IMG/VR virus record: IMGVR_UViG_3300014208_000025
Location: 116,967 to 180,966 of that record
Length of the DNA: 64,000 nucleotides
Reading direction: 5' to 3' (one strand)
From: a virus
Lineage: Duplodnaviria > Heunggongvirae > Uroviricota > Caudoviricetes
Shown: positions 3,285-59,773 of the stretch, in pieces
How positions within the stretch are numbered: the first letter of the stretch is position 1
How the letters are laid out: the number at the start of each line of letters is the position of its first letter
Program-made: the position numbers and the translations under genes
Notes under the pieces: model-generated
What the model was told of the DNA's origin: nothing
Database searches by the model: none
Seen by the model: the letters and a program-made list of their open reading frames with translations, nothing else

Positions 3285-3408
3285 TGTATTATTCCTTGTT
3301 TAATGTGACTATTGACCACATAATGTTGTTAAATTCTATGTTCATATTTACCCAAAACCCATCAAATGAACTCAAATATAAATATGATTAACTTTTTGGA
3401 AAGTCAAA

Positions 3409-14903: not shown

Positions 14904-15464
14904 ATGATTAGACTCATGGATATCATCAATGAAGATTTGGATATACCGACGCCGGCCCAACATCAACCAGCATCCAATACAATCATCAATTCCGATTTCC
15001 TAAAGTTCGTGATGAATGTGGAAAACGCTGAGTTAAAAGGTCGTGACCCCAAAACTAAAATTTGGCATCCACACTCGTCTCCAGAAGGAGGGTCTGAAAC
15101 GGTTGGATATGGACATAAGTTGAAAAACGGACCAAATGTTCAAAAACATACCAATCTTTCAGACAAAGACGTTGTAAAATTGTTAAGAGATGATTTAGTT
15201 GAAGCAAACAAAAAAGTTCATCAATATGTTGAAAAGGTTTACGGTATCAAAATTTTATTGAACCAAAAACAAGAAGAAATGTTAACCGAATTTGTTTTCA
15301 ATCTTGGTGGATTGGATAAATTTCCAAAATTCACAGAAGCCGTTTTGAAAAATGATATGCCTACAATGAGGAAGGAATACAAAAGATTTTATCGAGGTAA
15401 AGACCAAAAACCTATCGAATTAGAACGACGAAATAAGTTGTTCTATGACCGATTTTTGAAGTGA
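14904..15464 (+). CDS. lysozyme (GH24, T4 e / gp5-lysozyme-like)
   Basis: Glu...Asp...Thr catalytic triad followed by GYGH (NAELKGRDPKT...SETVGYGHKL), as in T4 lysozyme (TIGIGH). ATG at 14904 chosen because the longer listed ORF overlaps the convergent upstream gene. N-terminus MIRLMDIINE fits the leader consensus. Confidence 0.6.
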   Translation: MIRLMDIINEDLDIPTPAQHQPASNTIINSDFLKFVMNVENAELKGRDPKTKIWHPHSSPEGGSETVGYGHKLKNGPNVQKHTNLSDKDVVKLLRDDLVEANKKVHQYVEKVYGIKILLNQKQEEMLTEFVFNLGGLDKFPKFTEAVLKNDMPTMRKEYKRFYRGKDQKPIELERRNKLFYDRFLK

Positions 15465-15487
15465 CATTTTATAGGAAATGTGTTACA

Positions 15488-16930
15488 ATGATGTTTATGA
15501 CTGAAATCAAACAAAGAATCGTAGAAGGAATCAAAGAAAAATCTGCGGAAGACTTTATCCGTCAGACCATTAAAGGTACGGAATGGCAAGGTAAAGTTTT
15601 CGTTGCGGGTGGATATGTCCGAGATGAATTCCTTGGTAAAGACCCCAAAGACCTTGATTTGTTGGTAAACTCCCAAAACGGCGGCATCGAATTCGCCAAT
15701 TGGATTACCAAGAAAATTGGAAAATTCAAAGAAGGATCAAATCCCGTAACTTTTCCAAGGTTTGGCACTGCCAAGTTTAACCTTCTGGGAGTGATCCATA
15801 ATGGAATTGACCTTTCGGACATGGATATTGAGGCCGTAATGCCCCGCAAAGAACAATATACAGCAGGCTCCCGCAAGCCAGATGTATCCCAAGGGGAACT
15901 CAAAGATGACGTGGAACGTCGTGACTTCACTGTAAACAGCCTTTTGAAAGACCTTTCATCGGGTGAAATTCTTGATTTGACAGGCATGGGCAAGGATGAC
16001 ATCAAGGCCGGAATTGTCCGAACTCCGTTGAGTCCCGACAAGATTTTCACCGATGATCCACTCCGTCAGTTGCGAGCCGTTCGTTTCTCAGTCAAATACA
16101 ATTGGAAGTTGCCAATGTTCATGTTGAAGGGGTTGAAACGAAACGCTCCACAACTTAAGAATATTTCCAATGAACGTATCCGTGATGAGCTTGACAAAAT
16201 GTTGATGACGGGTTCCCCCGCCAAAGCTATCAAATTGATGAAAGTAGTCGGATTACTTCCATATGTTATTCCCGAACTCGTTCCAGCAATCAAGATGGTC
16301 CAGAATAAACATCATTCCGAAGATGTTTTTTCTCATACCTTAACAGTATTATCCAAAACTCAACCGGTTTTGATTCAAAGGTTGATGGGTTTGTTTCATG
16401 ATATCGGTAAGACGGTCACAAAATCAGTAACTCCAACAGGGGTACATTTTTATGACCACGAAGACGCGGGTTCAAAAATAGCCGAAAAAGTGATGACTCG
16501 CTTGAAATATCCAACGGAATTGATTGATGCGGTCAAATTGGGTGTGCGTAACCACATGCGTTTGAAATCCGCCAAGGATACCGGCGTGGAATTGTCCGAT
16601 AAGGCACTGCGTAAGTTTAAAATTGAAGTAGGCGACCAATTGGAAAACATTTTGAATGTTATCCATGCAGATAACTGTGCTCATTCAGATGCGTCTGCGA
16701 TGCCTAATCAGATTGCCAACATTCGTAAGCGTCTTGAAACACTGAATATGAATGTGGCCCACGGTAAACCAAAACTTCCCATTACCGGAAACGATTTACA
16801 GGCCATCGGTATCAAGCCCGGCCCAATCTATTCTGAAATTATGAAGTCTGTTACCGAATCGTGGTTTGAAAACCCGGCTATTTCTAAAGAACAGGCATTG
16901 AAAATTGCTAAACAAATTGCCAAAATATGA
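15488..16930 (+). CDS. cca: tRNA nucleotidyltransferase (CCA-adding enzyme), class II head domain plus HD domain
   Basis: GGYVRDEFLGKDPKDLDLLV head motif (G-G-x-V-R-D...D-x-D). HD-type region downstream (HDIGK...HMRLK). The listed ORF starts at a GTG at 15461. The ATG cluster at 15488-15497 is preferred. From 15497 the N-terminus is MTEIKQRIVE (leader-like). Confidence 0.8.
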   Translation: MMFMTEIKQRIVEGIKEKSAEDFIRQTIKGTEWQGKVFVAGGYVRDEFLGKDPKDLDLLVNSQNGGIEFANWITKKIGKFKEGSNPVTFPRFGTAKFNLLGVIHNGIDLSDMDIEAVMPRKEQYTAGSRKPDVSQGELKDDVERRDFTVNSLLKDLSSGEILDLTGMGKDDIKAGIVRTPLSPDKIFTDDPLRQLRAVRFSVKYNWKLPMFMLKGLKRNAPQLKNISNERIRDELDKMLMTGSPAKAIKLMKVVGLLPYVIPELVPAIKMVQNKHHSEDVFSHTLTVLSKTQPVLIQRLMGLFHDIGKTVTKSVTPTGVHFYDHEDAGSKIAEKVMTRLKYPTELIDAVKLGVRNHMRLKSAKDTGVELSDKALRKFKIEVGDQLENILNVIHADNCAHSDASAMPNQIANIRKRLETLNMNVAHGKPKLPITGNDLQAIGIKPGPIYSEIMKSVTESWFENPAISKEQALKIAKQIAKI

Positions 16931-19816: not shown

Positions 19817-19838
19817 AAAAGTATATTTATGTACCAAT

Positions 19839-20962: not shown

Positions 20963-21036
20963 TTAAACTCAAGAGTCTCATATCAGAATATGTTTATGAT
21001 AACGTGGATTTTGTTATCATAAGATCATATTTATAG
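20959..21036 (+). CDS. leader-only mini-ORF (25 aa)
   Basis: MIKLKSLISEYVYDNVDFVIIRSYL* starts in an ATGA overlap with the stop of 20372-20962. Stop TAG at 21034-21036. Confidence 0.25.
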   Translation: MIKLKSLISEYVYDNVDFVIIRSYL

Positions 21037-24856: not shown

Positions 24857-24875
24857 ACGGATATAAATATGGAAT

Positions 24876-25640: not shown

Positions 25641-25711
25641 ATATCCATAAATATCAGGAGTTATACGAAAAGATTATTATATTTCCAAAAAACAAATATG
25701 TAAATAAACGC

Positions 25712-29052: not shown

Positions 29053-29240
29053 AATATTTTTGTTTCTTTTGTTCTGAACTTATTAGAAGTTCAATGGAAG
29101 TTTGGTTGACCGTGATGGTCACTTTGGCGGCAAAAGATTGCTGCATTTCTACAGATAAATAGAAAAACATTTACCAAAATACGAAAAATCTTTCTGTATG
29201 AAGGAAAACGTTGTGATATTTATGTATGAGATAATATCAT

Positions 29241-29951: not shown

Positions 29952-30250
29952 TAAAATTGAAGGAAATACTTCATCGCCTCCACGCTGAGAACGAACAAGG
30001 TCTAACTGAAGTTGATAGTTGGAAAATCACGGATGCCGACTATTTGACAGACATGGGGTTTACCATTGATGGTATGTATCATTTCGGGTTGAAGAAACCT
30101 GAGATAAAGATTGCTCACAAAAAGGGTCAGGGCTTCATCGTTGAAGACATGACCAAAAACAGAAAACAAGTTTTTCCCAAGTTTACCGAACTGATGGAAT
30201 ACTTTTCAAAGTATCAACAACGTTGGGAACGGGAACCATATTCAGAATGA
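29948..30250 (+). CDS. hypothetical protein with MIKLK leader
   Basis: MIKLKEILHR. ATGA overlap with the upstream stop. Confidence 0.35.
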   Translation: MIKLKEILHRLHAENEQGLTEVDSWKITDADYLTDMGFTIDGMYHFGLKKPEIKIAHKKGQGFIVEDMTKNRKQVFPKFTELMEYFSKYQQRWEREPYSE

Positions 30251-30867
30251 TTAAAGAATACAAAAGAAATTGTCCTACATGTGATAGAGTTTTGTATTAC
30301 ACACGAAATTTTAGCATGGTTGACGCCAACAGAAAAAATAGTAAATGTTCTTTTTGTCGCAATAGTGGCGAAAATAATCCGATGTTTGGAAAGCCCGGTA
30401 CTAAAGGAATGTCTGGCAAAAAACAATCATTGGAATTTCGTAAAAACTTATCTGAAAGATTGATTGGTAAACCCATATTAGAAGAAACGAAGAAAAAGAT
30501 ATCGTTTTCTGTAAAATTAGCAATGAAACGGCCTGATGTTAAACAGAAAATCTATGATTCCTTGTCAAAAACAAAATATCTAAAAGTCAGAACTGACAAA
30601 GGCCAATTGGAATTGTTAAAACGTTGGAATGCCTTGGGGTTTAATTTTGAACCTAATTATCAATTACACACCAACGATTTTTTATATTATGTTGATGGTT
30701 ATGACAAAGAAAAAAATGTTGTGCTAGAATACGACGGTAAATATCATAGATATCCATATCAGCAAAAAAAGGATTTGGTTCGGCAACAACAAATTATTTC
30801 CTTTCTTAATCCCAAAAAGTTTTGGCGATACAATTCCGAAACTAAACAATTCGCCGATGTTTTGTAA
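30223..30867 (+). CDS. homing-endonuclease-like protein: N-terminal zinc ribbon plus NUMOD3 repeat, C-terminal putative PD-DxK-like nuclease domain
   Basis: CPTCDRV...CSFC. GENNPMFGKPGTKGMSGK. C-terminus YVDGYD...VVLEYDGKYH. Paralog of 51801-52487. Confidence 0.45.
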   Translation: MGTGTIFRMIKEYKRNCPTCDRVLYYTRNFSMVDANRKNSKCSFCRNSGENNPMFGKPGTKGMSGKKQSLEFRKNLSERLIGKPILEETKKKISFSVKLAMKRPDVKQKIYDSLSKTKYLKVRTDKGQLELLKRWNALGFNFEPNYQLHTNDFLYYVDGYDKEKNVVLEYDGKYHRYPYQQKKDLVRQQQIISFLNPKKFWRYNSETKQFADVL

Positions 30868-31429
30868 CATTCACTCCTATTTATTAGAGAAAGATAACTA
30901 TATGACACGTCAGAACCTTCAAGTCCACGAATTTAGTCTCAAGAGGATTTTAGAAAACCTCGATAACATTCCATCCAACGGCAAGTTCGGGGATGAACCA
31001 AAAAAGTTATCCCCACAAGACAAGAAGAAACTCATGGATGCGGTTTCCAAATTCAATGAATATGGAAAAGTTCTGCGTTGTGAAACTGCTCTTATGGAAA
31101 CCGCCAAGACACTAGATGAAATAGCTAATTTGGCTGAAATCTATGCCATGACCGAATCCTCCGACTTTTTTCAAGGTCGTGTTGTGGAACGTGATTTCAA
31201 ACAAGTCAAAGGTATCACTAAGGATTTTAAGAAACTCGCTCAAGAATGTCATGGCAAGATTCAACAGTTAAATGCTCTCTACGAAGACTTGGGACATCTA
31301 TTTGGTCGGTATTATGAAATCAAGACCTTGGATGAAATGATTGCGGATCAAAACCAAGAAGTTTCTGTACCGGCTCCACAATCAGGTCAAATCGTATCAG
31401 AAGTTGCTGAAGAAGAGGAAGAAGAATAA
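30857..31429 (+). CDS. hypothetical protein, poly-Glu C-terminus
   Basis: ORF. A strong terminator follows. Confidence 0.35.
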   Translation: MFCNIHSYLLEKDNYMTRQNLQVHEFSLKRILENLDNIPSNGKFGDEPKKLSPQDKKKLMDAVSKFNEYGKVLRCETALMETAKTLDEIANLAEIYAMTESSDFFQGRVVERDFKQVKGITKDFKKLAQECHGKIQQLNALYEDLGHLFGRYYEIKTLDEMIADQNQEVSVPAPQSGQIVSEVAEEEEEE

Positions 31430-31445
31430 TTTGCAGTTCGGAATG

Positions 31446-31481
31446 GGGAAGGTGGCCAAGAAATTGGCCGCCTTCTTTTAT
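31446..31481 (+). terminator. rho-independent terminator (GNRA tetraloop hairpin plus U-run)
   Basis: aaggtggccaa-GAAA-ttggccgcctt then cttttat. 11-bp stem with one G-U pair. Confidence 0.6.
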
Positions 31482-31487
31482 GTCCAC

Positions 31488-31530
31488 GCATAAAGGGCAC
31501 CGACTTTCGCCGATGCCCTTTGGCGGCCTT
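31488..31530 (-). terminator. putative terminator for the convergent SPFH operon
   Basis: 10-bp stem with one mismatch (aagggcaccg / cgatgccctt). On the minus strand it is followed by only a short ttta run. Confidence 0.35.
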
Positions 31531-31540
31531 CCAAACGTGC

Positions 31541-32443
31541 TTACTTGTTCGTGATACTTCCAACATTGATGAACGGAATAGCTCCAGAAGTTACTTGGGG
31601 CAGAATACCATTCCACTTATCCAAAGCAATGCTTTGTAACACCAAGGGATTCTTGACTAATGATTCGGCAATGACCGTGTTAGCGTCAGCTTGAGCTTTT
31701 GCCTTCAACATGATTGACTGAGCTTCACCTTCAGCATTGGCAATCTTGACTCGCTTTTCACCTTCGGCTTTGGCGGCTGCTTGGTCGGCTTCAGCCTTGG
31801 TTTGTTGAACCTTCAACTCGGATGCAGATGTTTGTTGTTTCTGAGCAATGATGGAGTTAATCGCGGCTTCAATCTTTTCATCAACATGCAGTTTGTTGGC
31901 AAAAGTAATGTAGTCAACTTCCCACCAGGTTCCAGTGCGAGCCTTTACTTCGGTCTTGACTTCATCAAGAAATGCACCACGTTTTTCACCGATGATTTCC
32001 ATTGGGTCATACTTTGATGCAATTCTACCGAGGGCATCCCGAACTTCATTACGAAGATAACCATGAATGATGTGGAATGGGTCGGTGCGAAACTTTACAA
32101 ACGTATGTGGAATCTGTTCGTTTACAAAGCGACCTGACATGGAAACGTCAGCTTTGATGGCCGCACCACCTTTACAGTTGAAGGAAATGGCTTCATCGGT
32201 TGGGCTACCTTCCGTGACGGCTTCACACCAAATGACGTTCTGTTGGAATGTGGGATATTCATAGACCCGAGTAGTCAATGGGAAATAGAAGACCCAACCC
32301 GTCTGTTGGGGGTAGTTTTCTACTCCTTTTTCAGACCCCGATTGATTGACTTTGATGCCAACATAGCCGGGTTCAATCCGTGTGCATCCTGTAATGGCGA
32401 GAACCGTTACACAGGCAAATAATGTTGTAATTAGCTTTTTCAT
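31541..32443 (-). CDS. SPFH/band-7 (stomatin/prohibitin/HflKC-like) lipoprotein
   Basis: Signal peptide with lipobox LAITGC. SPFH core plus Ala/Gln/Lys-rich coiled coil (ASELKVQQTKAEADQAAAKAEGEKRVKIANAEGEAQ). Confidence 0.7.
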   Translation of the reverse strand: MKKLITTLFACVTVLAITGCTRIEPGYVGIKVNQSGSEKGVENYPQQTGWVFYFPLTTRVYEYPTFQQNVIWCEAVTEGSPTDEAISFNCKGGAAIKADVSMSGRFVNEQIPHTFVKFRTDPFHIIHGYLRNEVRDALGRIASKYDPMEIIGEKRGAFLDEVKTEVKARTGTWWEVDYITFANKLHVDEKIEAAINSIIAQKQQTSASELKVQQTKAEADQAAAKAEGEKRVKIANAEGEAQSIMLKAKAQADANTVIAESLVKNPLVLQSIALDKWNGILPQVTSGAIPFINVGSITNK

Positions 32444-32458
32444 ACGTGTTTGTTTTGT

Positions 32459-32710
32459 TTATTTTGATGTTGCGATACAGACTCCTCCAAGGTAGCCTAA
32501 AATTAAGAATGTGAGCCAGCCACCGAAAGCGGCCAAAACCCAACACGCCACCACTTTCAATACTGCGACGAAGGAAACGGCAACTGTTCCTTTAATCAAC
32601 AGAATAATGGTGTAAATGCTGTAGGCAAACATGCCAAGGCCCACACCAAGACCGCTAACTACGGCGAAAATCATTAGGAGGGCACCAAAAATTACAAGGA
32701 ATTTGTTCAT
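32459..32710 (-). CDS. small membrane protein (2 predicted TM helices)
   Basis: Highly hydrophobic 83-aa ORF directly upstream of the SPFH gene. Confidence 0.4.
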   Translation of the reverse strand: MNKFLVIFGALLMIFAVVSGLGVGLGMFAYSIYTIILLIKGTVAVSFVAVLKVVACWVLAAFGGWLTFLILGYLGGVCIATSK

Positions 32711-32716
32711 GGAGAA

Positions 32717-32947
32717 TTAGGAGTTGAATTTTTTGATATAGTAAATGATTTCACGAACGACGACGGTGATGAGTCCGCCAACAATTAGTGCAGACAAAAC
32801 AAGGCCGAGTGCGAATGTCAAGGTGTTAGCGGTTGTCATTAAAGCGGCAGACCAACTCCCCAACAAAATAGTCACCAAAACGACCAATATGTAATAGACA
32901 AGTTTCCGGGTGACTATCCAACCCAACGATTTCCAATTTGTGTTCAT
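32717..32947 (-). CDS. small membrane protein (2 predicted TM helices)
   Basis: Hydrophobic 76-aa ORF. First gene of the putative three-gene membrane operon. Confidence 0.4.
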   Translation of the reverse strand: MNTNWKSLGWIVTRKLVYYILVVLVTILLGSWSAALMTTANTLTFALGLVLSALIVGGLITVVVREIIYYIKKFNS

Positions 32948-33039
32948 GATTTATGTGGCAATGTAACGTAGATATAATATCAGACTACCGAACAAATGTC
33001 AACTACAATCAGATGACTTTTTTTTATATCTCATTTGAT

Positions 33040-34212
33040 TTATTGTATCCCTCCATATGCAGCAGTATCAATAAATGTTGAGTCATCATTCTTAGTATGA
33101 TACCCCTCAAATAGTTCATGATAAAGGTTATTAACCTTTCCAAAATCAACTGACTTCCGTAAAGTTGTTGATTTATACGCATTATCCAATTGAATTTGCA
33201 TGTCCTTGGCAAAATCCATAACCGTTTCATAAGACCAAGCTCCATTCTTTACGGCCAAAATTTCTTCTCGATCAGTACGCTTCACGATAACCTTACCCTG
33301 CGTCAAAATTTCATAACCCATTCGCATGAGCCGAACAAGATGGGAAGCGTGCTTCGTGTCATAGCCGGATTTGACTTCAAGTTCTCGACGTGCTGGATTT
33401 CTTTCCGCCTTCCAACGTATCCATGACTTGTAGTTACTCATGGCCTTGTCATACGCTCGTTCCTTGTTGATTAGTTCGATGACTTCATCTTTTAAGGATA
33501 GGTCTTTTCGAATCTTTTCAATCACGCCAGCGGCATACGCATCCGGCCAATTATCCCAAGAAACCTTCTTGCTAGAAAGTTCTGCGATAAGTGTCCAAAT
33601 CGTTTCCTTCAAGTCGGCCCGATTTTGTTCATCCATCGGATACTGATTGAGATTCCACTGTTCCACCTTGGACTTGATGTAACCGAACACTTCCGTTGTG
33701 CCCTTCGTGAGTTCCGGTGGAAGACCAAACTGTTCCCGTGTCGGCGGCGACAATTCGCCCATGACAATCCACTTGCGATGACGTTCAATCTTTGCTAATT
33801 GTGCCCATGCGTACCCTCCGAACGTGAACTTAGCCTTTGAAGAAAGAAATAAATCTCTGTTTTCAAGTAGTTTATTCATTGTTGGTGTCATCATCAAAAA
33901 ATCTGTAGGGTCAACCCATAAAAGTTCCATGATATTTGGATTCACATTAGCCGCAAGAATCATGAATTTTCTAAGAGAATACACCGTAGATTCCACTTTT
34001 GGATTCTTTGGATTTTTAAGATGGTCAAATCTCTTATGGAGTTCAACATCATTTTCAGATTGTTCAAAACGATGAAACAAGTCATATTCTACTGTTGATG
34101 GGGGGGCAACAATTCCCTTTAAGTCAAGGTCGGATAATTCGTTGGCAAGGCCGTAGCATTGACTACCATGTTTCGTCATGAAAATTAGATTGTCGTAAAA
34201 CCACTTGTTCAT
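33040..34212 (-). CDS. Pol-beta-superfamily nucleotidyltransferase (RlaP/pfam10127-like)
   Basis: HGSQCYGLANELSDLDLKG = G-S-x(9)-S-D-x-D nucleotidyltransferase signature near the N-terminus. About 390 aa. Confidence 0.55.
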   Translation of the reverse strand: MNKWFYDNLIFMTKHGSQCYGLANELSDLDLKGIVAPPSTVEYDLFHRFEQSENDVELHKRFDHLKNPKNPKVESTVYSLRKFMILAANVNPNIMELLWVDPTDFLMMTPTMNKLLENRDLFLSSKAKFTFGGYAWAQLAKIERHRKWIVMGELSPPTREQFGLPPELTKGTTEVFGYIKSKVEQWNLNQYPMDEQNRADLKETIWTLIAELSSKKVSWDNWPDAYAAGVIEKIRKDLSLKDEVIELINKERAYDKAMSNYKSWIRWKAERNPARRELEVKSGYDTKHASHLVRLMRMGYEILTQGKVIVKRTDREEILAVKNGAWSYETVMDFAKDMQIQLDNAYKSTTLRKSVDFGKVNNLYHELFEGYHTKNDDSTFIDTAAYGGIQ

Positions 34213-34387
34213 AATGTTGTTTCTAAATTGTTTAATCCCAATCTTTGTATTATGTTTCTCGACCTTTTCATGCGACGTAAACGATGACGTTTAGACAATT
34301 GTATATGATTTGGAAATCTATAAAGAAACCCTTTAGGATGATGAAAATAGACACTTGTTAAATTACAGAGGTCAAACCTTTTCACGA

Positions 34388-34609
34388 CTAATTGTGTGTA
34401 ATATCAATCAGTTGAATTTTTATTTGTTCGGGGTGTCTAAATGTAAAATATTGTTTGTCAAAACGATCAATTCTCTCAATTCCACGAGTGGAAACATGGA
34501 TGGCTTCATCTACGGCGGACGCTATTTCCGTTTTTTGTTTGTGTGAAAAAATATATCCACCTGGCATTTCCAATTCAAATTCGGCAGTCAAGGTAAAATG
34601 ATGTTTCAT
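34388..34609 (-). CDS. small hypothetical protein
   Basis: ORF only. Confidence 0.25.
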   Translation of the reverse strand: MKHHFTLTAEFELEMPGGYIFSHKQKTEIASAVDEAIHVSTRGIERIDRFDKQYFTFRHPEQIKIQLIDITHN

Positions 34610-34613
34610 TATA

Positions 34614-35180
34614 TTATGTGTGTGTTATTGGCTCAAATGGTTTCTCACAAAGCAAGTCAACAAATCGCATGATTTCTTTGTAAGTTTTGGAATCGACATC
34701 GAACGACCACCGTTTCGTAGCAACGGAATCAATCCAGTCACGCAACGAAGTTCCAAATTCTTCTGACCGGGCTTTCCAGTCCGCACACATTTCGGCAACA
34801 TATACAGATGGCATTTTGTCAATGCTTCCCCAATATTCTACATGGTGTGGGTTGGTTTGACAATGATTGGAAATAGCAAACTTCATTTTGAGTTTCTTAT
34901 CTGCAACTTCATCCGACGATTTTCCGGGCACAATACTTTCCCATTCAATACCGCGAAATTTACTAGCATCATGTACAAATCCATTGGCAATCAAACGTTT
35001 TCCTAAATCCGTTTCACCTTGATTGATAAGTTTCTCCCCTAAAATCAAACAATTATCCTCCACGTTACGAATGTGACGTGTAAGCGCCCGAATCTTACTC
35101 ATGGTAAGGTCGGCTTCTTTCTTTATTCTATCAGACTTTTTCATAAAACTAAAATCCCATGCCCATACTACCGCCATCAA
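34614..35180 (-). CDS. putative HD-domain phosphohydrolase
   Basis: H...HD...H...D-like spacing (RHIRNV, FVHDASKF, NHCQTNPHH, CADW). Weak. Confidence 0.3.
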   Translation of the reverse strand: MMAVVWAWDFSFMKKSDRIKKEADLTMSKIRALTRHIRNVEDNCLILGEKLINQGETDLGKRLIANGFVHDASKFRGIEWESIVPGKSSDEVADKKLKMKFAISNHCQTNPHHVEYWGSIDKMPSVYVAEMCADWKARSEEFGTSLRDWIDSVATKRWSFDVDSKTYKEIMRFVDLLCEKPFEPITHT

Positions 35181-35677
35181 TAGCCCCCTCCACCGTCGTC
35201 ATAATCTCGGTATGTAGATTCTGAAAACTCTTTTTTGATGGCTTTCAACTCGTCACGAATTTCCATCCAAAGAACCCCAAGGCGATTCTTTCCCGAACCG
35301 TCGCCACCGTCGGCCCAATAACTGTCATTAACCGTATGTTCAACAATGGTGGCATCCTCCGTTGACAGAAGGAGTTTTTCAATCTGTGGATATTGGGCAA
35401 TCTTGGCCATCAACGCCTTTTTCATAACACCTTCCTTGACTTCTTCCCAATCCTTCCTCAAGGGCAAGTCTCTACGACGGCCCATCTCCGCACAAGACCA
35501 CGGGCCTTTACATAATCTTACAGCTTCTTCATGTTCTGTACCCGCGAATTTTTGAGATTGAAAATAATGTTCAGTCGTCTTCCATTCCTTACCATCCAAG
35601 ACGATTGGATGTTTTGAAAAGTTGGAGAAATCCCCATAGGGGTCAGCAATCTTGTAGAAGTTAATCACGGAGTTCAT
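35177..35677 (-). CDS. YbiA/NADAR-domain (DUF1768) protein
   Basis: Near-colinear with E. coli YbiA: INFYK..YGDFSNFS...W.TTEHYFQSQKF...PLRKDWE.VKE.VM.KAL.AK...VEHT.NDSYWADGGDGSGKNRLG.LWMEIR. Confidence 0.85.
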   Translation of the reverse strand: MNSVINFYKIADPYGDFSNFSKHPIVLDGKEWKTTEHYFQSQKFAGTEHEEAVRLCKGPWSCAEMGRRRDLPLRKDWEEVKEGVMKKALMAKIAQYPQIEKLLLSTEDATIVEHTVNDSYWADGGDGSGKNRLGVLWMEIRDELKAIKKEFSESTYRDYDDGGGGY

Positions 35678-36342: not shown

Positions 36343-37176
36343 ATGGAAACTGAAATGTCAACAATGAAAGATATTATATGGGAAGAAAACGACTCTATCA
36401 TACCACCGAAGAAATCCGTCAACGAAATAACGAAAAACGAATGCGTTACTACAACCACCACAAACGACTTGAACGGAAGCGGTCACTCAACCGATATTAC
36501 AAGAACAAAGATATCAGGAATCTACAAGATTGTCAATAAAATAAACGGAAAGTATTATGTTGGTAGTTCTAACATTATCAGTGGTAGATGGAATGGGCAT
36601 AGACATTTGTTAAATAAAAATATTCATAAAAACCCACACTTACAACTTTCTTGGAATAAATACGGAGAGAGAAATTTTGACTTCATTATTGTTGAAGAAA
36701 TTCCAAGAGAGAATCTTATTGAAGTTGAACAAAAATATCTTGATGTTGCTAAAACCGAACAACATAAATGTTACAACAAATCTTTTTTAGCAGATAGAAT
36801 TGAAATGACTTCACAAGTTATTGATAAAATTAGAGAATCAAATAGAAAACGAGTATGGTCAAAAGAATCATTACTTAAACTAAGTCAAATCCATAGAGGA
36901 CAAAAACACACAGAAGAAACAAAAAAGTTATTAAGTAAATTACTCAAAGGAAGAAAACTATCAGAAAAAACTAAAATAAAAATAGGCAAATCAAGAATTA
37001 ACTTAAAAATCTTTAAAAGGTATAATGTAAAAAATATAGAAAGCGAAGAAATTTTTAATGGAAACTATTATGATTTAGTAAAAAAATTAAATATGAGTAA
37101 GAGAAGTGTTAGCAATCTTATCAATGGTCATATAAATTTGTGTAAAAATTGGAAAATTATTTCATTACAAAACTAA
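36343..37176 (+). CDS. GIY-YIG homing endonuclease with NUMOD3
   Basis: ISGIYKIVNKINGKYYVGSS...R...E. GQKHTEETKK repeats. Confidence 0.8.
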   Translation: METEMSTMKDIIWEENDSIIPPKKSVNEITKNECVTTTTTNDLNGSGHSTDITRTKISGIYKIVNKINGKYYVGSSNIISGRWNGHRHLLNKNIHKNPHLQLSWNKYGERNFDFIIVEEIPRENLIEVEQKYLDVAKTEQHKCYNKSFLADRIEMTSQVIDKIRESNRKRVWSKESLLKLSQIHRGQKHTEETKKLLSKLLKGRKLSEKTKIKIGKSRINLKIFKRYNVKNIESEEIFNGNYYDLVKKLNMSKRSVSNLINGHINLCKNWKIISLQN

Positions 37177-38156
37177 TTTTCGGGAAAAACTCGTTGCCAC
37201 TGAACGTGTTGGAATGCACCCAAATCTTCACCGCCCGCGTAAGAAATGCTGGATTGAAGAGATTCCTTTATCTCCGTCAACCGTTCATCGTAGGTGAATC
37301 CTTCTTTTAGTTCCAAGGTTTTTCCTTCAATATGTTTGCGTAATCCCTTGGCTTCGTAAGAAGTTGACCCACGGTAAAGTTTCTTGCCATCAATGATTTT
37401 GGCTGGTGAATCAATACATGAAGCAAACCAACGACCCGACATAACCATCGTAGCTCCAAATGTCAATGCTTTGGCTATATCACCGTAATGCTTGGCTCCT
37501 CCATCCGCAATAATGGGAACGGGATAACCGATTTCAACAAGGCGAGTTTCAACCTCCAATACTGATTGTAACGTAGGCAAATGAAATCCTGTCATGAAAC
37601 GAGTGGTGCAGATTGAACCACCACCAATACCCACTTTGATAGCATCCACACCCAAACGTGCGAGATATTCGGCTCCTTCTCCTGTGGCTACGTTACCAAC
37701 AATGAGTTTGGTAGTTGGCCAACGGTGACGGACATATTTGACGGCTTCTTTAACATCTTCGTGATGACCATGAGCCACGTCAATAGTGATAAAATCAATA
37801 CGATGGCCCGACACCAAAGAATCATGAATGTCGGTTGAATATGTCTTGGTTCCAATACTTACACTAATCAAACGCCACTTTTCTTCGTTGGCAATCTTGA
37901 TAAAGGATGATGTTTTAAGTTGTGGATGAAACTCATTTTCCTGACCGAATCGATGGTAGATGTAGAAGTGGCCGCTTTCCATCAACCGTTTCGCATTCCA
38001 CGCATCAATGGTATCTTCCATATTTGCAGGAACAACGGGTAGGTTGAATGTTCGACCACAAAAGACAAGAGAGGTATCGGCTTTCGCTCGACTTTCCAAT
38101 TTAGAAAATTTGGGCCGAAGAGTCACCGTATCATAAGATAATAGAAAATCCTTCAT
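37173..38156 (-). CDS. guaC: GMP reductase (IMPDH/GMPR family, no CBS domains)
   Basis: [19 protein letters not shown] catalytic-Cys loop (IMPDH/GMPR signature GIGPGSICTTR). 327 aa TIM barrel. Confidence 0.8.
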
Positions 38157-43063: not shown

Positions 43064-46000
43064 TTATTCCCCAAGGATGTTGGTTTCGTCTAACATTGAC
43101 TTGCGACCCGTTGATTCAGCCTCTTTAATCAACTCTTTTTTTTCCTTTTTTGTCTTATCCAAGAAACCTTGCAGATTTTTGAGTAAACCACCGCCTCTTT
43201 TTGACTCCAAATGTAACGGGGAGTCGTTTTTCCATGTGTGAGTCAACTCACGGCCGGACCTTGTCTTGGCCTTATTTTCCAAGTCTCCCCGAGGGTCTTC
43301 CCCAAATGGATAGTCGGTAGCCTTTTTGTTACCTTTTTGTGATGGTCTTACATAACCGTCAGCATGTTCACCATGTTTTTCGGTTACATTCGTCTTTTCT
43401 TCCAATGGAGGAAGACCTTCTGGACCACCAGATTCACCTCCCGGCAAGCCTAAATCACCTTCCGGACTTCCGCCGCCACCTAAATCTGTCGGACCACCTC
43501 TGGCTCCGCCCGGATTACCGTCACCAGCATTCGGATTGATTTTCTTAAATGGTTTCGCAGGGTCGTTGCCCTCTTCTTCAATAGACTTAAACCTCCAACC
43601 CTGTTTGGAATCTTCCACCATCTGGTCAAGCAACGCTTCGGAATCATCTTCCGATAGATTGAATACGTTCTTGTAAATCCAATCCTTGGAAAAAATCTTG
43701 CTTTCCATCATGTTCTTGGCCAACTCGGTCTTGTTGCTCCAAACTTCAATCTTTTCCTTTTCAAAGATGGTAGATGGGTTAGTAAGCTCAAGTTTGAAAT
43801 TAACCAAACTCTCGTCACGATAACCTTGCGAATACAAATGGACGATAGCAATCTTTTCAAGTTCTGAAACGAGGACTTTTTGAATTCGTCCGATAGTCTT
43901 GGCAAAACGCACGTCTTCGGAGGCCAAAGTGGCTTTACCGGAAAGTTCTTCTTCATAACCCAAAAACGCCTTTGGAATCTTCAAAGCGGCCATTAGCTTG
44001 TTACGCAGATATTCGATATCGTCAATACCTGTGAATTCCATACCACTCAAAGTATCAATGGAAGTTCCACTGTCACTACCACGAACTGGTAAATAGAAAT
44101 CTTCAACCATGTTTTGCAGGTTGAAACGAAGGTTATAATCGCCCGTGTTCGGGTCAATATACGGTACTTTTTTCATTTTGGAGATTGCCTTCTCCATAAA
44201 TGTGTCAACATCTTGTGGTGGAATGTTACCGACATCCAGCTTGAAAATACGCTTCTCAGGAGCACGCATGATACGATGGATTAACATAGCGTCTTCCATC
44301 AATGATAATTGCTTCCAAACTCGACGAGCACCTTCCATCATAGATTTACCATATGGTAGGAAGTTGGAATCGGAAAGCAGTCTAAAGTGAGCACACTCAA
44401 AAGATTCGAGAGTTTCTACCTGTGATGTATCGGTAGGACGGATTTGGAACTTAACATAGTTCTTGTTAAGCGGATCGGTGTTTTCAAGACGTTCAACATT
44501 GTAAGCGGAAATGGGTTCGATTTGATAGACGCCGTATTCAGGGGAGATATACAATCGCATGTAGAAGTCACCATACTTACAGACGTTGCGAGTCCACGAC
44601 CAAAGGTTGTGTTCAATATTCAACACATCATAAAACAAGTTGGTTAGAATGCCTTTGATATTGTCATCTTCGGCATGGACGACAAGGATTTTACCCAACT
44701 CATTTGCGGACAAACATTCGTCGGCGTAAATATCAAGAGCGGATGCTAGGATCGGGTCCATATCCATCGTATTCGAAATTATACAACTATCAGTCGCAAA
44801 GTTGGCAAACTGTTCAACGGTAACATCATACACATCAATAGGGCCAATGGATTCAATTGATTTAATTTTATGATTCAACGTAGAAACGACATCATTTTTA
44901 AATGTATTCCAATCACAATTAGAGTATTTAAATCTATTTTGTATGGTTGTATAATCGCAACCAACATCTTTTATTAACCCCCACAAAGTTAGATTTCCAT
45001 TTTGCTTGTAATACTCAGTTGCTTTAACTTTTAGAACTTCTATGGTTAAATCATTACGGTATTTTGGATTTTTGTTTCCAGTTTGATCCCTATTAACAAA
45101 TACTTCTTTAAGTGTTTCAGAACGTTTTTTATTAGATTCGTCGGAATGAGTCTTACCGAAAAATGGATTGTTTTCTCCTTTCCTCTCACCATTCCACTTA
45201 TGACATTTTCTATTTTTATAACCATCTGAATTAAACATTTTTTCCAATGTTTTTTGTTTGTTTTCAGGACGCCACATTTCATGGGCAATTTTCCTATGAT
45301 AATCTAAATGATCCGATTTGGTCATGATTTGAAGATTATCCGGTAAATTATATGTTTTATTAAAATTTTTGTGATGGACACATTCATTAGTCAAAATAGG
45401 TTTGTAAAATTGTTCCGCCACAATTTTGTGTTCGGCTTGCCATCCTTTTGAAAAGTTATAAATACAATTATATCCATGATAATTTTTCTGGTAAAACGGC
45501 ATTACTGAATCTCCAACTTTCAAATCTACAATCTTTTTGTATTCACCGTTCCTCATTAAAAATGGATGTTTTATGCTTCCAATAACATATTGACCATTAT
45601 CAAAGGTTACTTTATATCCCATTCTCGTTCCACCCCCCTTTTTACGAGGATGAAATGCTTTTCCTAACTTGATTGATTTTGATACATGGTCATAAGAAAA
45701 CACATAGAATCTTTCTTGAGGCTTATCTTTGTACTTTTCTGCCAGTTCTTTAATAGTGGGCCTTGATCCATCTGGTAATGGAATGATAGTATCTGGTCCT
45801 ACACAATCGTAGTCCCGGAACAAATCAATTCTGGCAGCTTGGTAGGCGAGCGAAAAATCTCTTGTGTAGGCGTTGTAAGAAGTGGAACGAACCCGGTTGA
45901 AACGGTCACGGAGACTGTTTCGGTCGGTAGCATACATCAAGTCGCTTGTGTCCTTGACTTTGAGTTTTTTACCACCGACATTTCTTACTACTACACCGGA

Positions 46001-46099
46001 AGCAAAAAGTTTCTTTAAGCGAGCGAATAGTGAACGTTGTTTAACGTCAATTTCGTCGTGATTTCCGGTTGTTTCTGGTCTAAGTACTTGGTTTGCCAT
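43064..46099 (-). CDS. portal protein (T4 gp20-like) interrupted by an intein
   Basis: HRIMRAPEKRIFKLDVGNIPPQDVD (T4 [20 protein letters not shown]). Gly-rich C-terminus. Intein blocks as given in the intein feature. Confidence 0.75.
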   Translation of the reverse strand: MANQVLRPETTGNHDEIDVKQRSLFARLKKLFASGVVVRNVGGKKLKVKDTSDLMYATDRNSLRDRFNRVRSTSYNAYTRDFSLAYQAARIDLFRDYDCVGPDTIIPLPDGSRPTIKELAEKYKDKPQERFYVFSYDHVSKSIKLGKAFHPRKKGGGTRMGYKVTFDNGQYVIGSIKHPFLMRNGEYKKIVDLKVGDSVMPFYQKNYHGYNCIYNFSKGWQAEHKIVAEQFYKPILTNECVHHKNFNKTYNLPDNLQIMTKSDHLDYHRKIAHEMWRPENKQKTLEKMFNSDGYKNRKCHKWNGERKGENNPFFGKTHSDESNKKRSETLKEVFVNRDQTGNKNPKYRNDLTIEVLKVKATEYYKQNGNLTLWGLIKDVGCDYTTIQNRFKYSNCDWNTFKNDVVSTLNHKIKSIESIGPIDVYDVTVEQFANFATDSCIISNTMDMDPILASALDIYADECLSANELGKILVVHAEDDNIKGILTNLFYDVLNIEHNLWSWTRNVCKYGDFYMRLYISPEYGVYQIEPISAYNVERLENTDPLNKNYVKFQIRPTDTSQVETLESFECAHFRLLSDSNFLPYGKSMMEGARRVWKQLSLMEDAMLIHRIMRAPEKRIFKLDVGNIPPQDVDTFMEKAISKMKKVPYIDPNTGDYNLRFNLQNMVEDFYLPVRGSDSGTSIDTLSGMEFTGIDDIEYLRNKLMAALKIPKAFLGYEEELSGKATLASEDVRFAKTIGRIQKVLVSELEKIAIVHLYSQGYRDESLVNFKLELTNPSTIFEKEKIEVWSNKTELAKNMMESKIFSKDWIYKNVFNLSEDDSEALLDQMVEDSKQGWRFKSIEEEGNDPAKPFKKINPNAGDGNPGGARGGPTDLGGGGSPEGDLGLPGGESGGPEGLPPLEEKTNVTEKHGEHADGYVRPSQKGNKKATDYPFGEDPRGDLENKAKTRSGRELTHTWKNDSPLHLESKRGGGLLKNLQGFLDKTKKEKKELIKEAESTGRKSMLDETNILGE
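44771..45805 (-). mobile_element. intein (345 aa) with HNH endonuclease domain and NUMOD3, inserted in the portal gene
   Basis: N-terminal splice block C-VGPDTII. Block B VTFDNGQYVIGSIKH (T...H). HNH-like CVHHKNFNKTYNLPDNLQIMTKSDHLDYH. GENNPFFGKTHSDE. C-terminal block VYDVTVEQFANFATDSCIISN followed by Thr at +1. Penultimate His is absent. Confidence 0.65.
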
Positions 46100-46261
46100 G
46101 TGGTTTCCTTTTGTTATCGGCTGTGTGTATGTGTTTTATCGGTTAATAGCCTACAAGACTATTAACCAACTATAAATATGATGTGTTTTGTTAAGAAACA
46201 ACTTTCCATCCTTTATGATAAGAGTATTTTCCACAACAATCTGATTAACTAAGATAAATCT

Positions 46262-53031: not shown

Positions 53032-56000
53032 TCAAATATAATTTACTTTGGAAAACCCATCTTCTTTTATTACTTCAAGTTGATTATCTACACAATCCCG
53101 AAGTGCTTCCAAATGTGAAATTATTAAAACAAAATCAAATTGGGATTTTAGATAAGTAAATAAAATACTCATAGAAGATAAATTCTCAGCATCAAGTACC
53201 GAAAAACCTTCGTCGATTACGAGGAAATTCGGGCGTGGTAAATTGGAAATGTTGATTAGAGCCACACGAATTGCCAGTGACAACGTGAACTTCTCCATAC
53301 CACTCGTTAGACTCATAAGCCACTTCTTGTCATCGTAAACGATGTAGGGAATGATGTTTTTGCCATCCGTTTCGAACTTCGCACTGAACTCGGAAATCTG
53401 TGAAAGAATGGTATTCACTTCCCGCTCGATTTCTGGAACGGTCATGGTGATGACATTGAACGGGATGCCGTCACGACACACGGCTTGGGTGTAAGTTTCG
53501 TAAACCTTATATTCCGCCTCAGTCTTTTTGGCTTCTTCCATCTTCTTGTTGATGGTATCAATCTGTGATTTGAAGGTAGCGATTTTTCCGTTCAAATCCA
53601 TTAACGTCTTGTTTTTGACTTTGAGTAGTGTTTCCACATTGCTCAACTCCAGTTTGATGGCTTGAATGCGTTTGTTGACTTCTTCGTTAGCAATCCACGA
53701 ATCCTTATTCTTGTTATAGGTTGCAATGTCATTTTCAATCTTTATCAACCCCTCTTCATTGGATTTCAACGTCACCTTCAAACGATTGATTTTATCGTTT
53801 AGACGAATGACCGCATCCTTTACCTTGTTTCGTTTTGATAGCAATTGGGTGTAATTGTCATAGGATTTGACGGCCCACTCGTTAGCTGAAATCTTAACGT
53901 TGATTTCGGTAAGTTGACGAATCAAGTCTTCGGCAATGACTTTATCCGCTTTCAATTCCGACTCAGCTTTGTCAGCATTCGTGATGATGTTACCTGCATT
54001 GGAAACACAGAATGTGCAGTTGGGGTCATATTTGTGACCCTTTTTACGAGCCACAACCCCGTTACGATGGATGATTTCGTTCTTCTTCTGATGGATTTTC
54101 GACTGAATTTCCACCCGAGTAGTCAATAGAGCTTGATGTCCTTTGTAAGAAGATGATATGTCTTTTTCTTCCATCTCCTTGATTTCCGTTTCAATGGGCG
54201 TCAGTTGAGATTGTGTTGCGACCAACTCAGTCTCCACAGTAGTAACATCCGTCTGACCCGATTTAATGACCGTTTCAAACTTGATTTTGTTGGCTTGAGA
54301 GACTTCCAACGGAGGAATGTTCCCATCAATTTTAATCAACAGTTTCGTTTCTTTAACTATCTTCTGCTGAACGGTAGTCTGTTGGGTGGTCAATTCTTGA
54401 ACTTTGACGGATTCATCGGTGAACGCATTGTTGGCTTGAGCAACAGCATTGTTTAGGTCAACGAGTAACTTGGTATAGTCATCATTACGATAGGTCTTCA
54501 ATAACGTCGCCAATTCCTTGAAACGTTCATTGGCTTCATTGTAGAGTCGGTCGAATATGGATAGACCCATGAACTGAGCCAAAAGGTCTTTGCGGTCGGT
54601 GTTACCCATATCAATGACAGACCCATTGTTTTTACCGCCCTGAACGCTAAGCGACGTAAGAATGAAGTCTTCGTAGGTGCCAAGATAGTCTCGAATGACT
54701 TCGTTGGTATCTCTACGGTCTTCACCATGTAAATCCACTTCAACATCGTTTTCCAACTTCCAAAACCGAACGTTGACTTTGACGGCCCCTTTGCGGTCAG
54801 CCTTGCCGTTACGTTCGATGAAGTATTTTTTTCCGTCAATTTCGAACTCCAATTTGCATCGGAAGCTAGTTTTTTGGACGTTAAGGATGTTCGCCGCTTT
54901 GAACTCACGTTCACACTTGTCAAAGAGACAGAATGTAAGAGCCGATAGAATGGTGGATTTGCCGGAAGCGTTCGCTGCAAACAAACCGACAACATCCTTC
55001 ATCTTGGTAAAGTCAATGACATTACCTTCACCGTAACTAAACATGTTGTCCCACTCAAAACGGATGGGAATCCAACGAATGTTGCGAGCAAAATCATCCT
55101 TCTTGATTGCTCCGTTGGTCTTATCATTTACCGCAATCACTTGATCAATAAAGGCTTGGTCGGTGATGTTCAAACGATTTTTCAAGTAGTCGGTAATGAG
55201 TTGAACCTGATAGTCTCGGTTGGAAATGTTACCCAAAACGATGCCGTTGGGAGCAATAGACTTGACTTTAGAGGCATCACTCTCAAGTTTACTGAATGAA
55301 GTTTCAATGACTTCGGTTAACCCACGCAGTTCGGTCAACGCCGTTTTTACTTCGGTAGCGACCGTTTCAAAAAGTTGAAACTGGATACGAGCCTTCTTTG
55401 GAACGGTGGCCAAATCGGTCAAAACCTGACCTTTATCCATAACCACAGTGAAAAATCCGTAGTTGTTTGGTATTTCAATGTGTTCGTATGATTTATTATC
55501 CAAATTCCATAACGTATAACCATGACCATTTAAGGATTCCCCATGATTTTGTTGTATTAAACTTCCGCAAAATCTCACAACAGGTTTGTTGTTTTGATAA
55601 TCATATTCTTGTAACGTTTGATTTTTATGTATGTCTCCTAAAAGAGCAATATGATGATTATTAAACAGTGAAGTTGTAACTGATTTGTTAATAATACGAA
55701 ACCCAATATCGGTTATTGCGTTATCAACAGGTCCGTGAAATAAACATATAAAATGTTGATATTTATTACGATATATTTGAGGAATGTCTTCACCCTTGAT
55801 ATATTTCTCGGGCGAGTCGAAGATGCTGTAGTTGTTAATACAGACGTTTCCGAACCCATATAATCCAGATTCTTTCAAGTAATAGAGATTGGAATGATTG
55901 ATAGCGTTGACGATTGGAGTCAAGCTATCCAACCGATTTCGATTGGTGAGATTGGTATCGTGGTTTCCCGGAATCAAAATTGTTGGCCTCAACTCAGCCA

Positions 56001-58482: not shown

Positions 58483-58515
58483 GTCTATAAATATAGTGAG
58501 CCAACGGAAATCTCA

Positions 58516-59733: not shown

Positions 59734-59773
59734 AATTGTTTAGTTCTCCAACTATAAATATAGTAAAATTTGA

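Follow-up and report, generated by a model that had tools for sequence, protein, structure and literature searches.

This study concerns a compact operon of membrane-protein genes on the minus strand of a 64,000-nucleotide stretch of viral DNA (positions 116,967 to 180,966 of IMG/VR record IMGVR_UViG_3300014208_000025), which is called the window in the following and whose first letter is position 1. Three co-directional open reading frames (ORFs) of 76, 83 and 300 amino acid residues (aa) fill exactly the span 31541-32947, where such an operon had been predicted earlier from the letters of the DNA. They are tightly packed, with intergenic gaps of 6 nucleotides (nt) between the 76-aa and the 83-aa ORF and of 15 nt between the 83-aa ORF and the 300-aa ORF, and they form one operon. 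We consider all three to be real genes rather than chance ORFs, because each of them has homologues or is supported by a hidden Markov model (HMM). The 300-aa ORF encodes an SPFH (Band-7) protein with a lipobox, the 76-aa ORF a predicted hairpin of two transmembrane (TM) helices and the 83-aa ORF a very hydrophobic protein. Judged from sequence comparisons, the functional unit of the operon is a conserved and often fused pair, which consists of the SPFH lipoprotein and the two-TM hairpin and is distinct from the SPFH-NfeD type.

When the 300-aa protein was compared with Pfam, it matched Band_7 (PF01145) over residues 22-220 (E=8e-15, 55.8 bits, cut-off 23.6) and is thus a member of the SPFH proteins. 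Comparison with PHROG 200, a family annotated as 'lipoprotein', aligned residues 1-296 with profile positions 81-361 (E=2.1e-57, 196 bits). To classify the N-terminus (MKKLITTLFACVTVLAITGC) we applied the lipoprotein rule of PROSITE PS51257 (basic N-terminal region, hydrophobic core, lipobox [LVI][ASTVI][GAS]C). Here, we found that the sequence satisfies the pattern, with two Lys within the first 7 residues, Cys at position 20 and Thr at the +2 position. The signal peptide and lipobox (residues 1-20) are followed by the SPFH alpha/beta domain (about 21-185) and by a coiled-coil helix of about 75 residues (189-264). The latter is predicted as one long helix and consists of 24% Ala, 13% Lys, 12% Glu and 11% Gln. 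Both the lipobox-bearing SPFH protein and the Ala/Lys/Glu coiled coil of the original prediction were recovered in this way. The mature protein carries no further hydrophobic segment and no C-terminal TM helix (maximum KD17 1.12). In alignments A1 and A2 (21 and 30 sequences) the lipobox cysteine Cys20 is invariant and the C-terminal motif KWNGxLPxV..GAxPF is likewise invariant; when 80 IMG/VR homologues were examined, no fewer than 73 carried a lipobox. Cys20 is therefore a probable site of lipid modification.

An AlphaFold2 (AF2) monomer model calculated from alignment A2 (mean predicted local distance difference test score 80) consists of the SPFH domain and the helix of about 75 residues. 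In Foldseek, this model gave full-length matches to prohibitin, erlin, HflK/C, stomatin, QmcA and flotillin (E 1e-12 to 4e-9), and for the first five of these proteins the probability was 1.00 over 270-326 aligned columns. The QmcA-YbbJ structure 8z5g was also among the fold matches. The predicted fold thus corresponds to that of cage-forming SPFH proteins over the full length of the latter. At the sequence level the similarities are marginal. A single-sequence search of the PDB with the SPFH protein returned no match, and a profile search reached QmcA, prohibitin and HflK weakly, QmcA being the best of them (1.5e-5). Taken together, sequence-level similarity to NCBIfam and PDB entries was restricted to HflK, HflC, QmcA and prohibitin. 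The possibility that the protein is an HflK or HflC equivalog was rejected, since it scored 18.2 and 18.1 bits against TIGR01933 and TIGR01932, for which the cut-offs are 159.4 and 134.4 bits.

Two small double-TM proteins had been proposed to accompany the SPFH protein, and this description fits the 76-aa ORF. Its product has two clear hydrophobic helices (about 16-38 and 43-64) and its charged residues are confined to the ends. In order, it comprises a basic N-terminus, TM1, the short polar loop ALMTTANT, a TM2 that begins with Gly and a basic C-tail (REIIYYIKKFNS). In the phages ProddE, P88 and CKB-S1, a two-TM ORF of 65-73 aa runs into the beginning of the SPFH gene or ends directly at it. 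When this arrangement was quantified, 42 of 59 non-redundant viral loci had a small ORF with two or more TM helices that ends shortly before the SPFH gene, compared with 19 of 542 background ORFs of the same size. We built an HMM from 43 partners adjacent to SPFH genes, with the window sequences excluded. This model added 11 adjacent or fused viral cases, from loci missed by the hydrophobicity filter, and 16 of 27 loci in bacterial genomes. In total, the partner is adjacent or fused in 54 of the 59 viral loci, and in one more it lies at a distance of 379 nt. In a test set of 2,212 ORFs the model gave matches at 29 loci, and in each of these the match lies upstream of the SPFH gene and on the same strand. 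When the 386 ORFs of the window were searched, the 76-aa ORF ranked top (E=2.2e-8) and the 83-aa ORF did not match. A second, weak match (37688-37855, minus strand, E=9e-4) is an alternative frame within a 327-aa ORF (37173-38156) and was regarded as spurious.

The consensus of the partners consists of a basic N-terminus, TM1, a loop of the approximate form P-x-L-[IV]-S-[AS]-x-[SD]-[DT], a TM2 starting with Gly and a basic tail. Because of these basic ends, the two TM segments and the short conserved loop, the consensus implies an N-in/C-in hairpin of which the loop alone would reach the periplasm. For operational purposes we defined a partner as a protein of 40-140 aa with two TM segments, the polar loop motif and a basic C-tail, encoded directly upstream of the SPFH gene or fused to it. 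The 76-aa ORF has these properties, except that in the window the 83-aa gene intervenes. PHROG 1130 ('membrane protein', moron category) was matched by six of seven scanned partners from phages outside the jumbo-phage clade of the window, and the 76-aa ORF itself had no direct match to this family at E<=0.01. Pfam offered no family for any partner scanned. Three further hairpin ORFs of this type are unannotated in public records: phiP27 (L121, about 2310-2505, loop PFLISMKD), the P1-like phage MH422554 (L123, about 2300-2505, loop PNMISSNS) and Lak-C1 (L128, about 1215-1470, loop PTLINAAS).

The small genes had also been set beside the NfeD-like partners of bacterial SPFH proteins, and membership in that family was not upheld. 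Neither of the two small ORFs nor any of 8 partner homologues matched PF01957 (E<=0.1), and at 76 and 83 aa the TM segments fill nearly the whole length, which leaves no room for the soluble OB-fold domain of NfeD. That hairpin and SPFH protein belong together is also indicated by related loci. In five relatives with 51-73% SPFH identity (L124, L125, L012, L009, L010) a homologue of the 76-aa gene abuts the SPFH gene, and it is also present at the SPFH locus of the closer relative L007. In cluster P0078 (58% SPFH identity) a clear 76-aa homologue is fused in frame with the SPFH protein; this fusion was found on two contigs from two samples, each of them syntenic with the window. Eight further clusters are fused as well (P0097, P0105, P0107-P0109, P0111, P0114, P0115).

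The 83-aa protein deviates from the double-TM description. It consists of two hydrophobic blocks of about 36-40 residues (4-39 and 41-82) that are divided by K40. Each block is long enough for a helical hairpin, so that the protein may pass the membrane up to four times. Its family comprises 6 proteins, the one in the window and 5 homologues at 53-76% identity. The gene is present in the window and in L007, where SPFH identity is at least 77%, and absent from the relatives at 51-73%. Two of its homologues (P0125, P0126) are located at loci that have neither an SPFH gene nor a partner. Because it is confined to the subclade of at least 77% identity and also occurs at loci lacking SPFH gene and partner, the comparison indicates that the 83-aa gene is a lineage-specific insert and not a core part of the system. 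Its candidacy as second core partner was rejected on the same grounds and for its lack of a partner-HMM match; of the two small ORFs proposed as SPFH partners, the 76-aa ORF alone is conserved. At two loci, L092 (2319-2561) and L093 (929-1171), 83-aa homologues stand amid other small membrane-protein genes, each followed by a conserved gene of 106-108 aa. As there is no SPFH gene in the vicinity, they are regarded as a small mobile membrane gene. L092 also carries a pair of 81-aa and 292-aa genes, which was considered as another module of this kind and discarded, as it matched neither the SPFH HMM nor the partner HMM.

To define the distribution of the SPFH gene, we carried out tblastn searches, in which 461 phage genomes gave matches, every one below 60% identity. 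The carriers include T7-like, N4-like, P2-like, P1/SSU5-like, Stx, phiP27, Vi01-like, crAss-like, Lak and jumbo phages as well as phages of Staphylococcus and Bacillus. At E<=1e-10 the gene has 258 homologues. Sequences from bacterial genomes, mostly metagenome-assembled genomes (Proteobacteria, Acidobacteriota, Binataceae), reach at most 44% identity, and by sequence the phage proteins form a clade of their own. Where the homologue has no lipobox cysteine (L034, L077, L087, L126, L127), the two-TM partner is missing as well or is replaced by a one-TM protein. Two of these homologues come from phages of monoderm hosts, Staphylococcus phage S-CoN_Ph16 (L126) and Bacillus phage Jabberwock (L127). 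Both were checked and have no canonical lipobox, and in each the gene upstream encodes a protein with one TM segment (91 or 44 aa). In a Prevotella Lak megaphage, lipobox and two-TM partner are both present. In this small sample, lipobox and hairpin appear to co-vary.

The fusions are also informative with respect to membrane location. In the AF2 model of a fused protein, helices at 6-39, 43-74 and 79-95 precede the SPFH domain. The fused forms must be inner-membrane proteins, because two TM helices stand at their start. In addition, all enterobacterial homologues (P88, phiP27, SSU5, the P1-like phage, Kluyvera, Buttiauxella, Y. pestis) have Asp at +2, directly behind the lipobox Cys. In Enterobacteriaceae, Asp at this position is the classical signal for Lol avoidance and retention in the inner membrane. 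Because of the fusions, Asp+2 and the integral membrane hairpin of the partner, the SPFH domain is probably located on the periplasmic face of the inner membrane, with a topology as in HflK/C. For the protein of the window, inner-membrane sorting is likely by analogy with these relatives.

The coordinates of the operon and of its flanking signals are summarized in the table.

Table. Genes and signals of the SPFH operon (window coordinates)
Feature	Position	Strand	Remarks
Two-TM hairpin ORF, 76 aa	32947-32717	minus	distal gene, conserved partner of the SPFH lipoprotein
Very hydrophobic ORF, 83 aa	32710-32459	minus	lineage-specific insert between partner and SPFH genes
SPFH/Band-7 lipoprotein ORF, 300 aa	32443-31541	minus	
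Signal peptide and lipobox, MKKLITTLFACVTVLAITG followed by C	32384-32443	minus	PROSITE PS51257 pattern
Putative sigma-70-type promoter, -35 TTGACA, 17-nt spacer, extended -10 TG-n-TATTAT	32974-33002	minus	11 of 12 consensus positions plus TG extension
Terminator-like GC-rich hairpin, 15 nt past the SPFH stop, then UUUAU	31484-31526	minus	fold energy
Terminator hairpin of the convergent plus-strand gene (30857-31429), then UUCUUUUAU	31445-31478	plus	fold energy

Upstream of the 76-aa gene, the sequence TTGACA-17-TG-TATTAT is likely to function as a promoter. The -35 and extended -10 elements recur identically in L007, where the spacer, the flanks and the upstream gene differ. Downstream, the hairpin behind the SPFH gene (76-nt fold) had a fold energy of -28.5 kcal/mol (z=-3.1, 0 of 200 shuffles as stable); a simple terminator scanner omitted it because its U-tract is short. 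The hairpin of the convergent gene reached -30.1 kcal/mol (z=-4.5, 0 of 200 shuffles as stable). These two hairpins between convergent genes close the downstream boundary of the operon. Terminators had been expected on both sides. The downstream one was confirmed, but upstream neither the scanner nor the folding calculation (z=-0.6) revealed a terminator, and the putative promoter occupies that place.

A different candidate signal was observed elsewhere in the window. The motif ATATTTATR occurs 9 times compared with 2.05 expected, and 0 of 100 shuffles reached 9. Its copies (3377-3385, 19823-19831, 21027-21035, 24862-24870, 25646-25654, 29216-29224, 46171-46179, 58486-58494, 59753-59761) all lie between genes and in the orientation of the gene that follows; several are only 4-17 nt ahead of the start codon, and others precede the tail sheath and portal genes. 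We consider this motif a candidate late promoter, the transcripts of which would be nearly leaderless. The SPFH operon has no copy of the motif.

In other phages the pair is located next to genes of DNA metabolism and early functions. Its neighbours are the DNA polymerase-to-exonuclease region in ProddE, the cox-to-A operon in P88, DNA polymerase in CKB-S1, exonuclease/recombinase genes in SSU5, DnaB in the P1-like phage and DNA ligase in L125 and L010. In the Staphylococcus and Bacillus phages, too, the SPFH pair stands amid early/DNA-metabolism genes (DNA polymerase). Because of this gene context and the promoter type we favor an early over a late lysis function, and the operon is probably expressed early.

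As originally proposed, the operon is carried by a phage. Products of its genes include tail sheath, major head and portal proteins, an SbcCD-like protein and a tRNA nucleotidyltransferase in the window, and the exact SPFH protein is present on a metagenomic contig of 351,839 bp. Because of the sheath, head and portal genes and the length of this contig, the source is a jumbo myovirus of about 352 kb. Relatives were found on contigs of 90-364 kb. When 8 kb around the locus were compared by blastn with 50,697 phage genomes, only a 123-nt patch in the nucleotidyltransferase gene was matched, so that none of these sequenced phages is a near relative in its DNA. The capsid protein has its nearest cultured relatives in Microcystis phage Mel-JY01 and Flavobacterium phage immuto, with 50% identity in both cases. 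A Shine-Dalgarno-like motif, even a weak one, precedes just 9 of 50 long window genes, and the leaders are A-rich. The GC content of the window is 40%, and the window contains no tRNA genes and no recognizable lysogeny genes. It had been argued that the lipobox implies a diderm host. Monoderm bacteria also make lipoproteins, so that this deduction is invalid in general. The conclusion itself is nevertheless probably right for other reasons. The capsid relatives' hosts, the scarcity of Shine-Dalgarno motifs and the absence of a canonical lipobox from the homologues in monoderm phages point to a diderm that makes little use of Shine-Dalgarno sequences, and the data suggest, on indirect grounds, a host of either the Cyanobacteria or the Bacteroidota type.

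Several other genes of the window deserve mention. The portal ORF (43064-46099, minus strand, 1011 aa) has HNH-endonuclease PHROG matches at about residues 194-434, ahead of the portal domain (443-846), and looks like a portal gene with a fused or inserted HNH module. A single 1068-aa ORF (53032-56238, minus strand) is SbcD-like over residues 12-287 and SbcC-like over residues 265-1067, which indicates a fused SbcCD. A CCA-adding tRNA nucleotidyltransferase is encoded at 15461-16930 (plus strand).

The immediate neighbours of the operon are a nucleotidyltransferase gene and hypothetical genes. Scans of the window ORFs against Pfam and PHROG revealed no adjoining endolysin or spanin gene, and the three operon proteins and the upstream nucleotidyltransferase had no match in PADLOC-DB 2.0 at E<=0.01. 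The adjoining region 33040-35677 (minus strand) carries accessory RNA/ADP-ribose-type genes, namely an RlaP-type nucleotidyltransferase (PHROG 388), DUF5662 and NADAR. On the P0078 contigs, too, RlaP and NADAR genes precede the fused SPFH gene, and such a cluster may have repair or counter-defence roles. On the other side, at 30223-30867 (plus strand), an ORF has a NUMOD3 motif and a weak match to a homing-endonuclease PHROG. In L007 a different, Cys-rich ORF of 173 aa is inserted upstream of the partner gene. Because of the homing-endonuclease-like ORF and of this insert, the neighbourhood looks like an insertion hotspot.

From these data we propose the following scenario. The operon would be an accessory unit of the 'moron' type, which host RNA polymerase transcribes early from the operon's own sigma-70-type promoter. 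The SPFH protein would be exported, receive its lipid at Cys20 and stay attached to the cytoplasmic (inner) membrane on the periplasmic side. Through the long coiled-coil helix and the C-terminal motif, its subunits would form a closed ring or dome there, which would enclose a membrane patch. To our knowledge, every full-length SPFH protein solved so far forms a closed ring or dome. The 76-aa hairpin would be inserted into the same membrane and its periplasmic loop would dock to the membrane-proximal SPFH domain or nucleate assembly. It would thus occupy the place that NfeD has in bacterial SPFH operons, although it is unrelated to NfeD. The most likely payoff would be protection of the inner membrane during replication, either by blocking entry of a superinfecting genome or by resisting premature permeabilization. 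The gene structure, the family assignments, the fold, the sorting signals and the conserved and fused state of the pair are shown by the data, whereas lipidation, the oligomeric cage, docking and early timing are inferences. We have moderate confidence in the cell biology of this scaffold; its biological role is speculative and we hold it with low confidence. For the reading as a whole, an early accessory operon for a two-component inner-membrane scaffold with a protective payoff, we see a chance that falls a little short of even. A more far-reaching version would regard lipoprotein-SPFH and hairpin as a distinct, NfeD-independent class of periplasm-facing cages, in which lipobox and hairpin co-evolve as a unit. 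It would serve diderm phages from T7-like podoviruses to 540-kb Lak megaphages as an early general inner-membrane shield that excludes superinfecting genomes or neutralizes membrane-attacking abortive-infection effectors. Fused forms might, in this version, be split by signal peptidase II once they are inserted in the membrane. This generalization is unlikely.

A number of observations weigh against the scaffold scenario. The proposed cage is derived from monomer folds and from the conservation of the coiled coil and the C-terminal motif, and the +2 residue in the window is Thr and not Asp, so that sorting of this protein rests on the fusion argument from its relatives. If the host belongs to the Bacteroidota, it would not be expected to use a promoter of the TTGACA/TATAAT type. 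In Kayvirus the SPFH gene mbpS is located in the lysis module, between the endolysin and tgl genes (PMC7150955); this locus is known to us from the paper alone, and the other phage loci were inspected directly. A Pasteurella prophage SPFH lipoprotein was found in outer-membrane vesicles (PMC9872710), and if it is homologous, it indicates an outer-membrane location there. Low-count detection of SPFH proteins was reported for virion preparations of Erwinia jumbo and Vi01-like phages (PMC7760394, PMC10892097). The scaffold model does not predict SPFH protein in virions, and this signal is likely to reflect membrane contamination. Finally, papers up to 2026 call the role of the SPFH family in phages unclear (PMC7760394, PMC13239085), and our full-text literature search found no functional study of the phage SPFH/hairpin pair.

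Among the alternatives, the pair could act as modulator of FtsH or of another membrane protease. A cage that mimics HflK/C would trap or shield FtsH or another inner-membrane quality-control enzyme and would thereby alter the turnover of phage or host membrane proteins. The HflK/C-FtsH system is an established target of phage regulation in lambda, and the phage protein shares with HflK/C the side of the membrane and the overall architecture. Moreover, the few sequence similarities in NCBIfam and PDB lead to just this group (HflK, HflC, QmcA, prohibitin). However, about 18 bits against equivalog cut-offs of 159 and 134 are far from membership, HflK/C is a TM-anchored heteromer whereas the phage system consists of a single lipoprotein and a hairpin, and the module also occurs in virulent phages of every lifestyle, for which a CII-type decision is irrelevant. 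We therefore judge this explanation improbable, although not negligible. Less probable still is a lysis-timing device, in which the small proteins would be holin- or antiholin-like and the SPFH scaffold would confine or delay holin triggering, comparable to lysis inhibition. In size and topology the partner does correspond to a class II holin (two TM, N-in/C-in, basic tail), one distant partner showed a sub-threshold match to Phage_holin_2 (E=0.004, 17.8 bits vs cut-off 32), and the Kayvirus mbpS location agrees with this idea (PMC7150955). On the other hand, no holin family of Pfam or PHROG was matched by the small ORFs of the window, and no partner exceeded a holin threshold. An endolysin or spanin gene does not adjoin the operon, its promoter is of the sigma-70 and not of the late-type motif, and in the other phages examined, Kayvirus excepted, the pair accompanies early/DNA-metabolism genes. 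A spanin reading was also rejected, since the mature SPFH protein has no C-terminal TM helix and is far bigger than an o-spanin, and since its partner has no periplasmic coiled coil.

Capture of a canonical bacterial SPFH-NfeD microdomain operon would explain why a gene for a small membrane protein is coupled with an SPFH gene, as in qmcA-ybbJ and yqiK-yqiJ. But without a PF01957 match, and being too short for an OB-fold, the partners fail NfeD membership. The phage operon departs from this type in its gene order (partner first) and its lipoprotein anchor, and the phage proteins form their own clade with at most 44% identity to the bacterial genome sequences found. This origin is very improbable. 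Hardly any weight can be given to a lysogenic-conversion or virulence lipoprotein on the outer membrane or on vesicles, for which Pasteurella PM0222, a prophage-encoded SPFH protein that is present in outer-membrane vesicles and signals through TLR1/2, would be the precedent (PMC9872710). The window belongs to an environmental 352-kb myovirus in which no lysogeny genes were seen, the pair occurs in many strictly virulent phages, and both Asp+2 and the fusions favor the inner membrane.

SPFH scaffolds (prohibitin, stomatin, flotillin, HflK/C) are a major topic of membrane biology, and phages carry a version of their own in hundreds of genomes. What is new here is the definition of the conserved or fused pair, its non-NfeD nature and its probable inner-membrane and early-gene character. 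Since the same pair is found in tractable phages of E. coli and Salmonella (P88, phiP27, SSU5, P1-like, Vi01-like), the hypotheses are directly testable there, and the phage of the window is not required for this. If the pair is indeed a general membrane shield or exclusion device, SPFH cages would have been put to a new use, and the strategy would be widespread among phages.

Comparison with known systems places the operon as follows. T4 Imm/Sp, T5 Llp and TP-J34 Ltp are phage membrane proteins or lipoproteins for superinfection exclusion. With these early, envelope-acting small proteins the pair shares a functional analogy only; none of them is an SPFH protein, and neither a sequence nor a fold relationship to the pair was found. 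E. coli HflK/HflC resemble the SPFH protein of the window in their periplasm-facing domain, N-terminal anchor, long coiled-coil wall helix and C-terminal cap (fold E ~1e-11), but they are anchored by a TM helix instead of a lipid and form a heteromer instead of using one subunit type. E. coli QmcA-YbbJ and other SPFH-NfeD operons likewise have an SPFH scaffold gene beside a gene for a small membrane partner. In contrast to the phage protein, QmcA is oriented towards the cytoplasm. The phage partner has no counterpart of the NfeD OB-fold domain, and gene order and anchor differ. Staphylococcus Kayvirus MbpS/MbpV and the Bacillus and Staphylococcus homologues also have a gene for a small membrane protein directly in front of the SPFH gene (PMC7150955); there, the SPFH protein is TM-anchored and has no canonical lipobox, the partner has a single TM segment and, in Kayvirus, the genes are part of the lysis module. 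Phage SPFH lipoproteins and their upstream 'membrane protein' have already been catalogued (PHROG 200, PHROG 1130, RefSeq), and the window holds a divergent member of this group with an extra gene. Escherichia phage P88 (gp11-gp12), Salmonella phage SSU5 (gp061-062) and phiP27 (L05) carry the same pair with unchanged gene order: the two-TM mini-protein comes first, and the SPFH protein behind it has 276-300 aa, a lipobox and the same C-terminal KWNG..P..PF motif. In those phages the two genes overlap or abut, whereas in the window the 83-aa gene lies between them. Identity to the P88/SSU5/phiP27 type is 31-37%, the partner of the window is too divergent for a direct match to PHROG 1130, and its SPFH lipoprotein carries Thr instead of Asp at +2.

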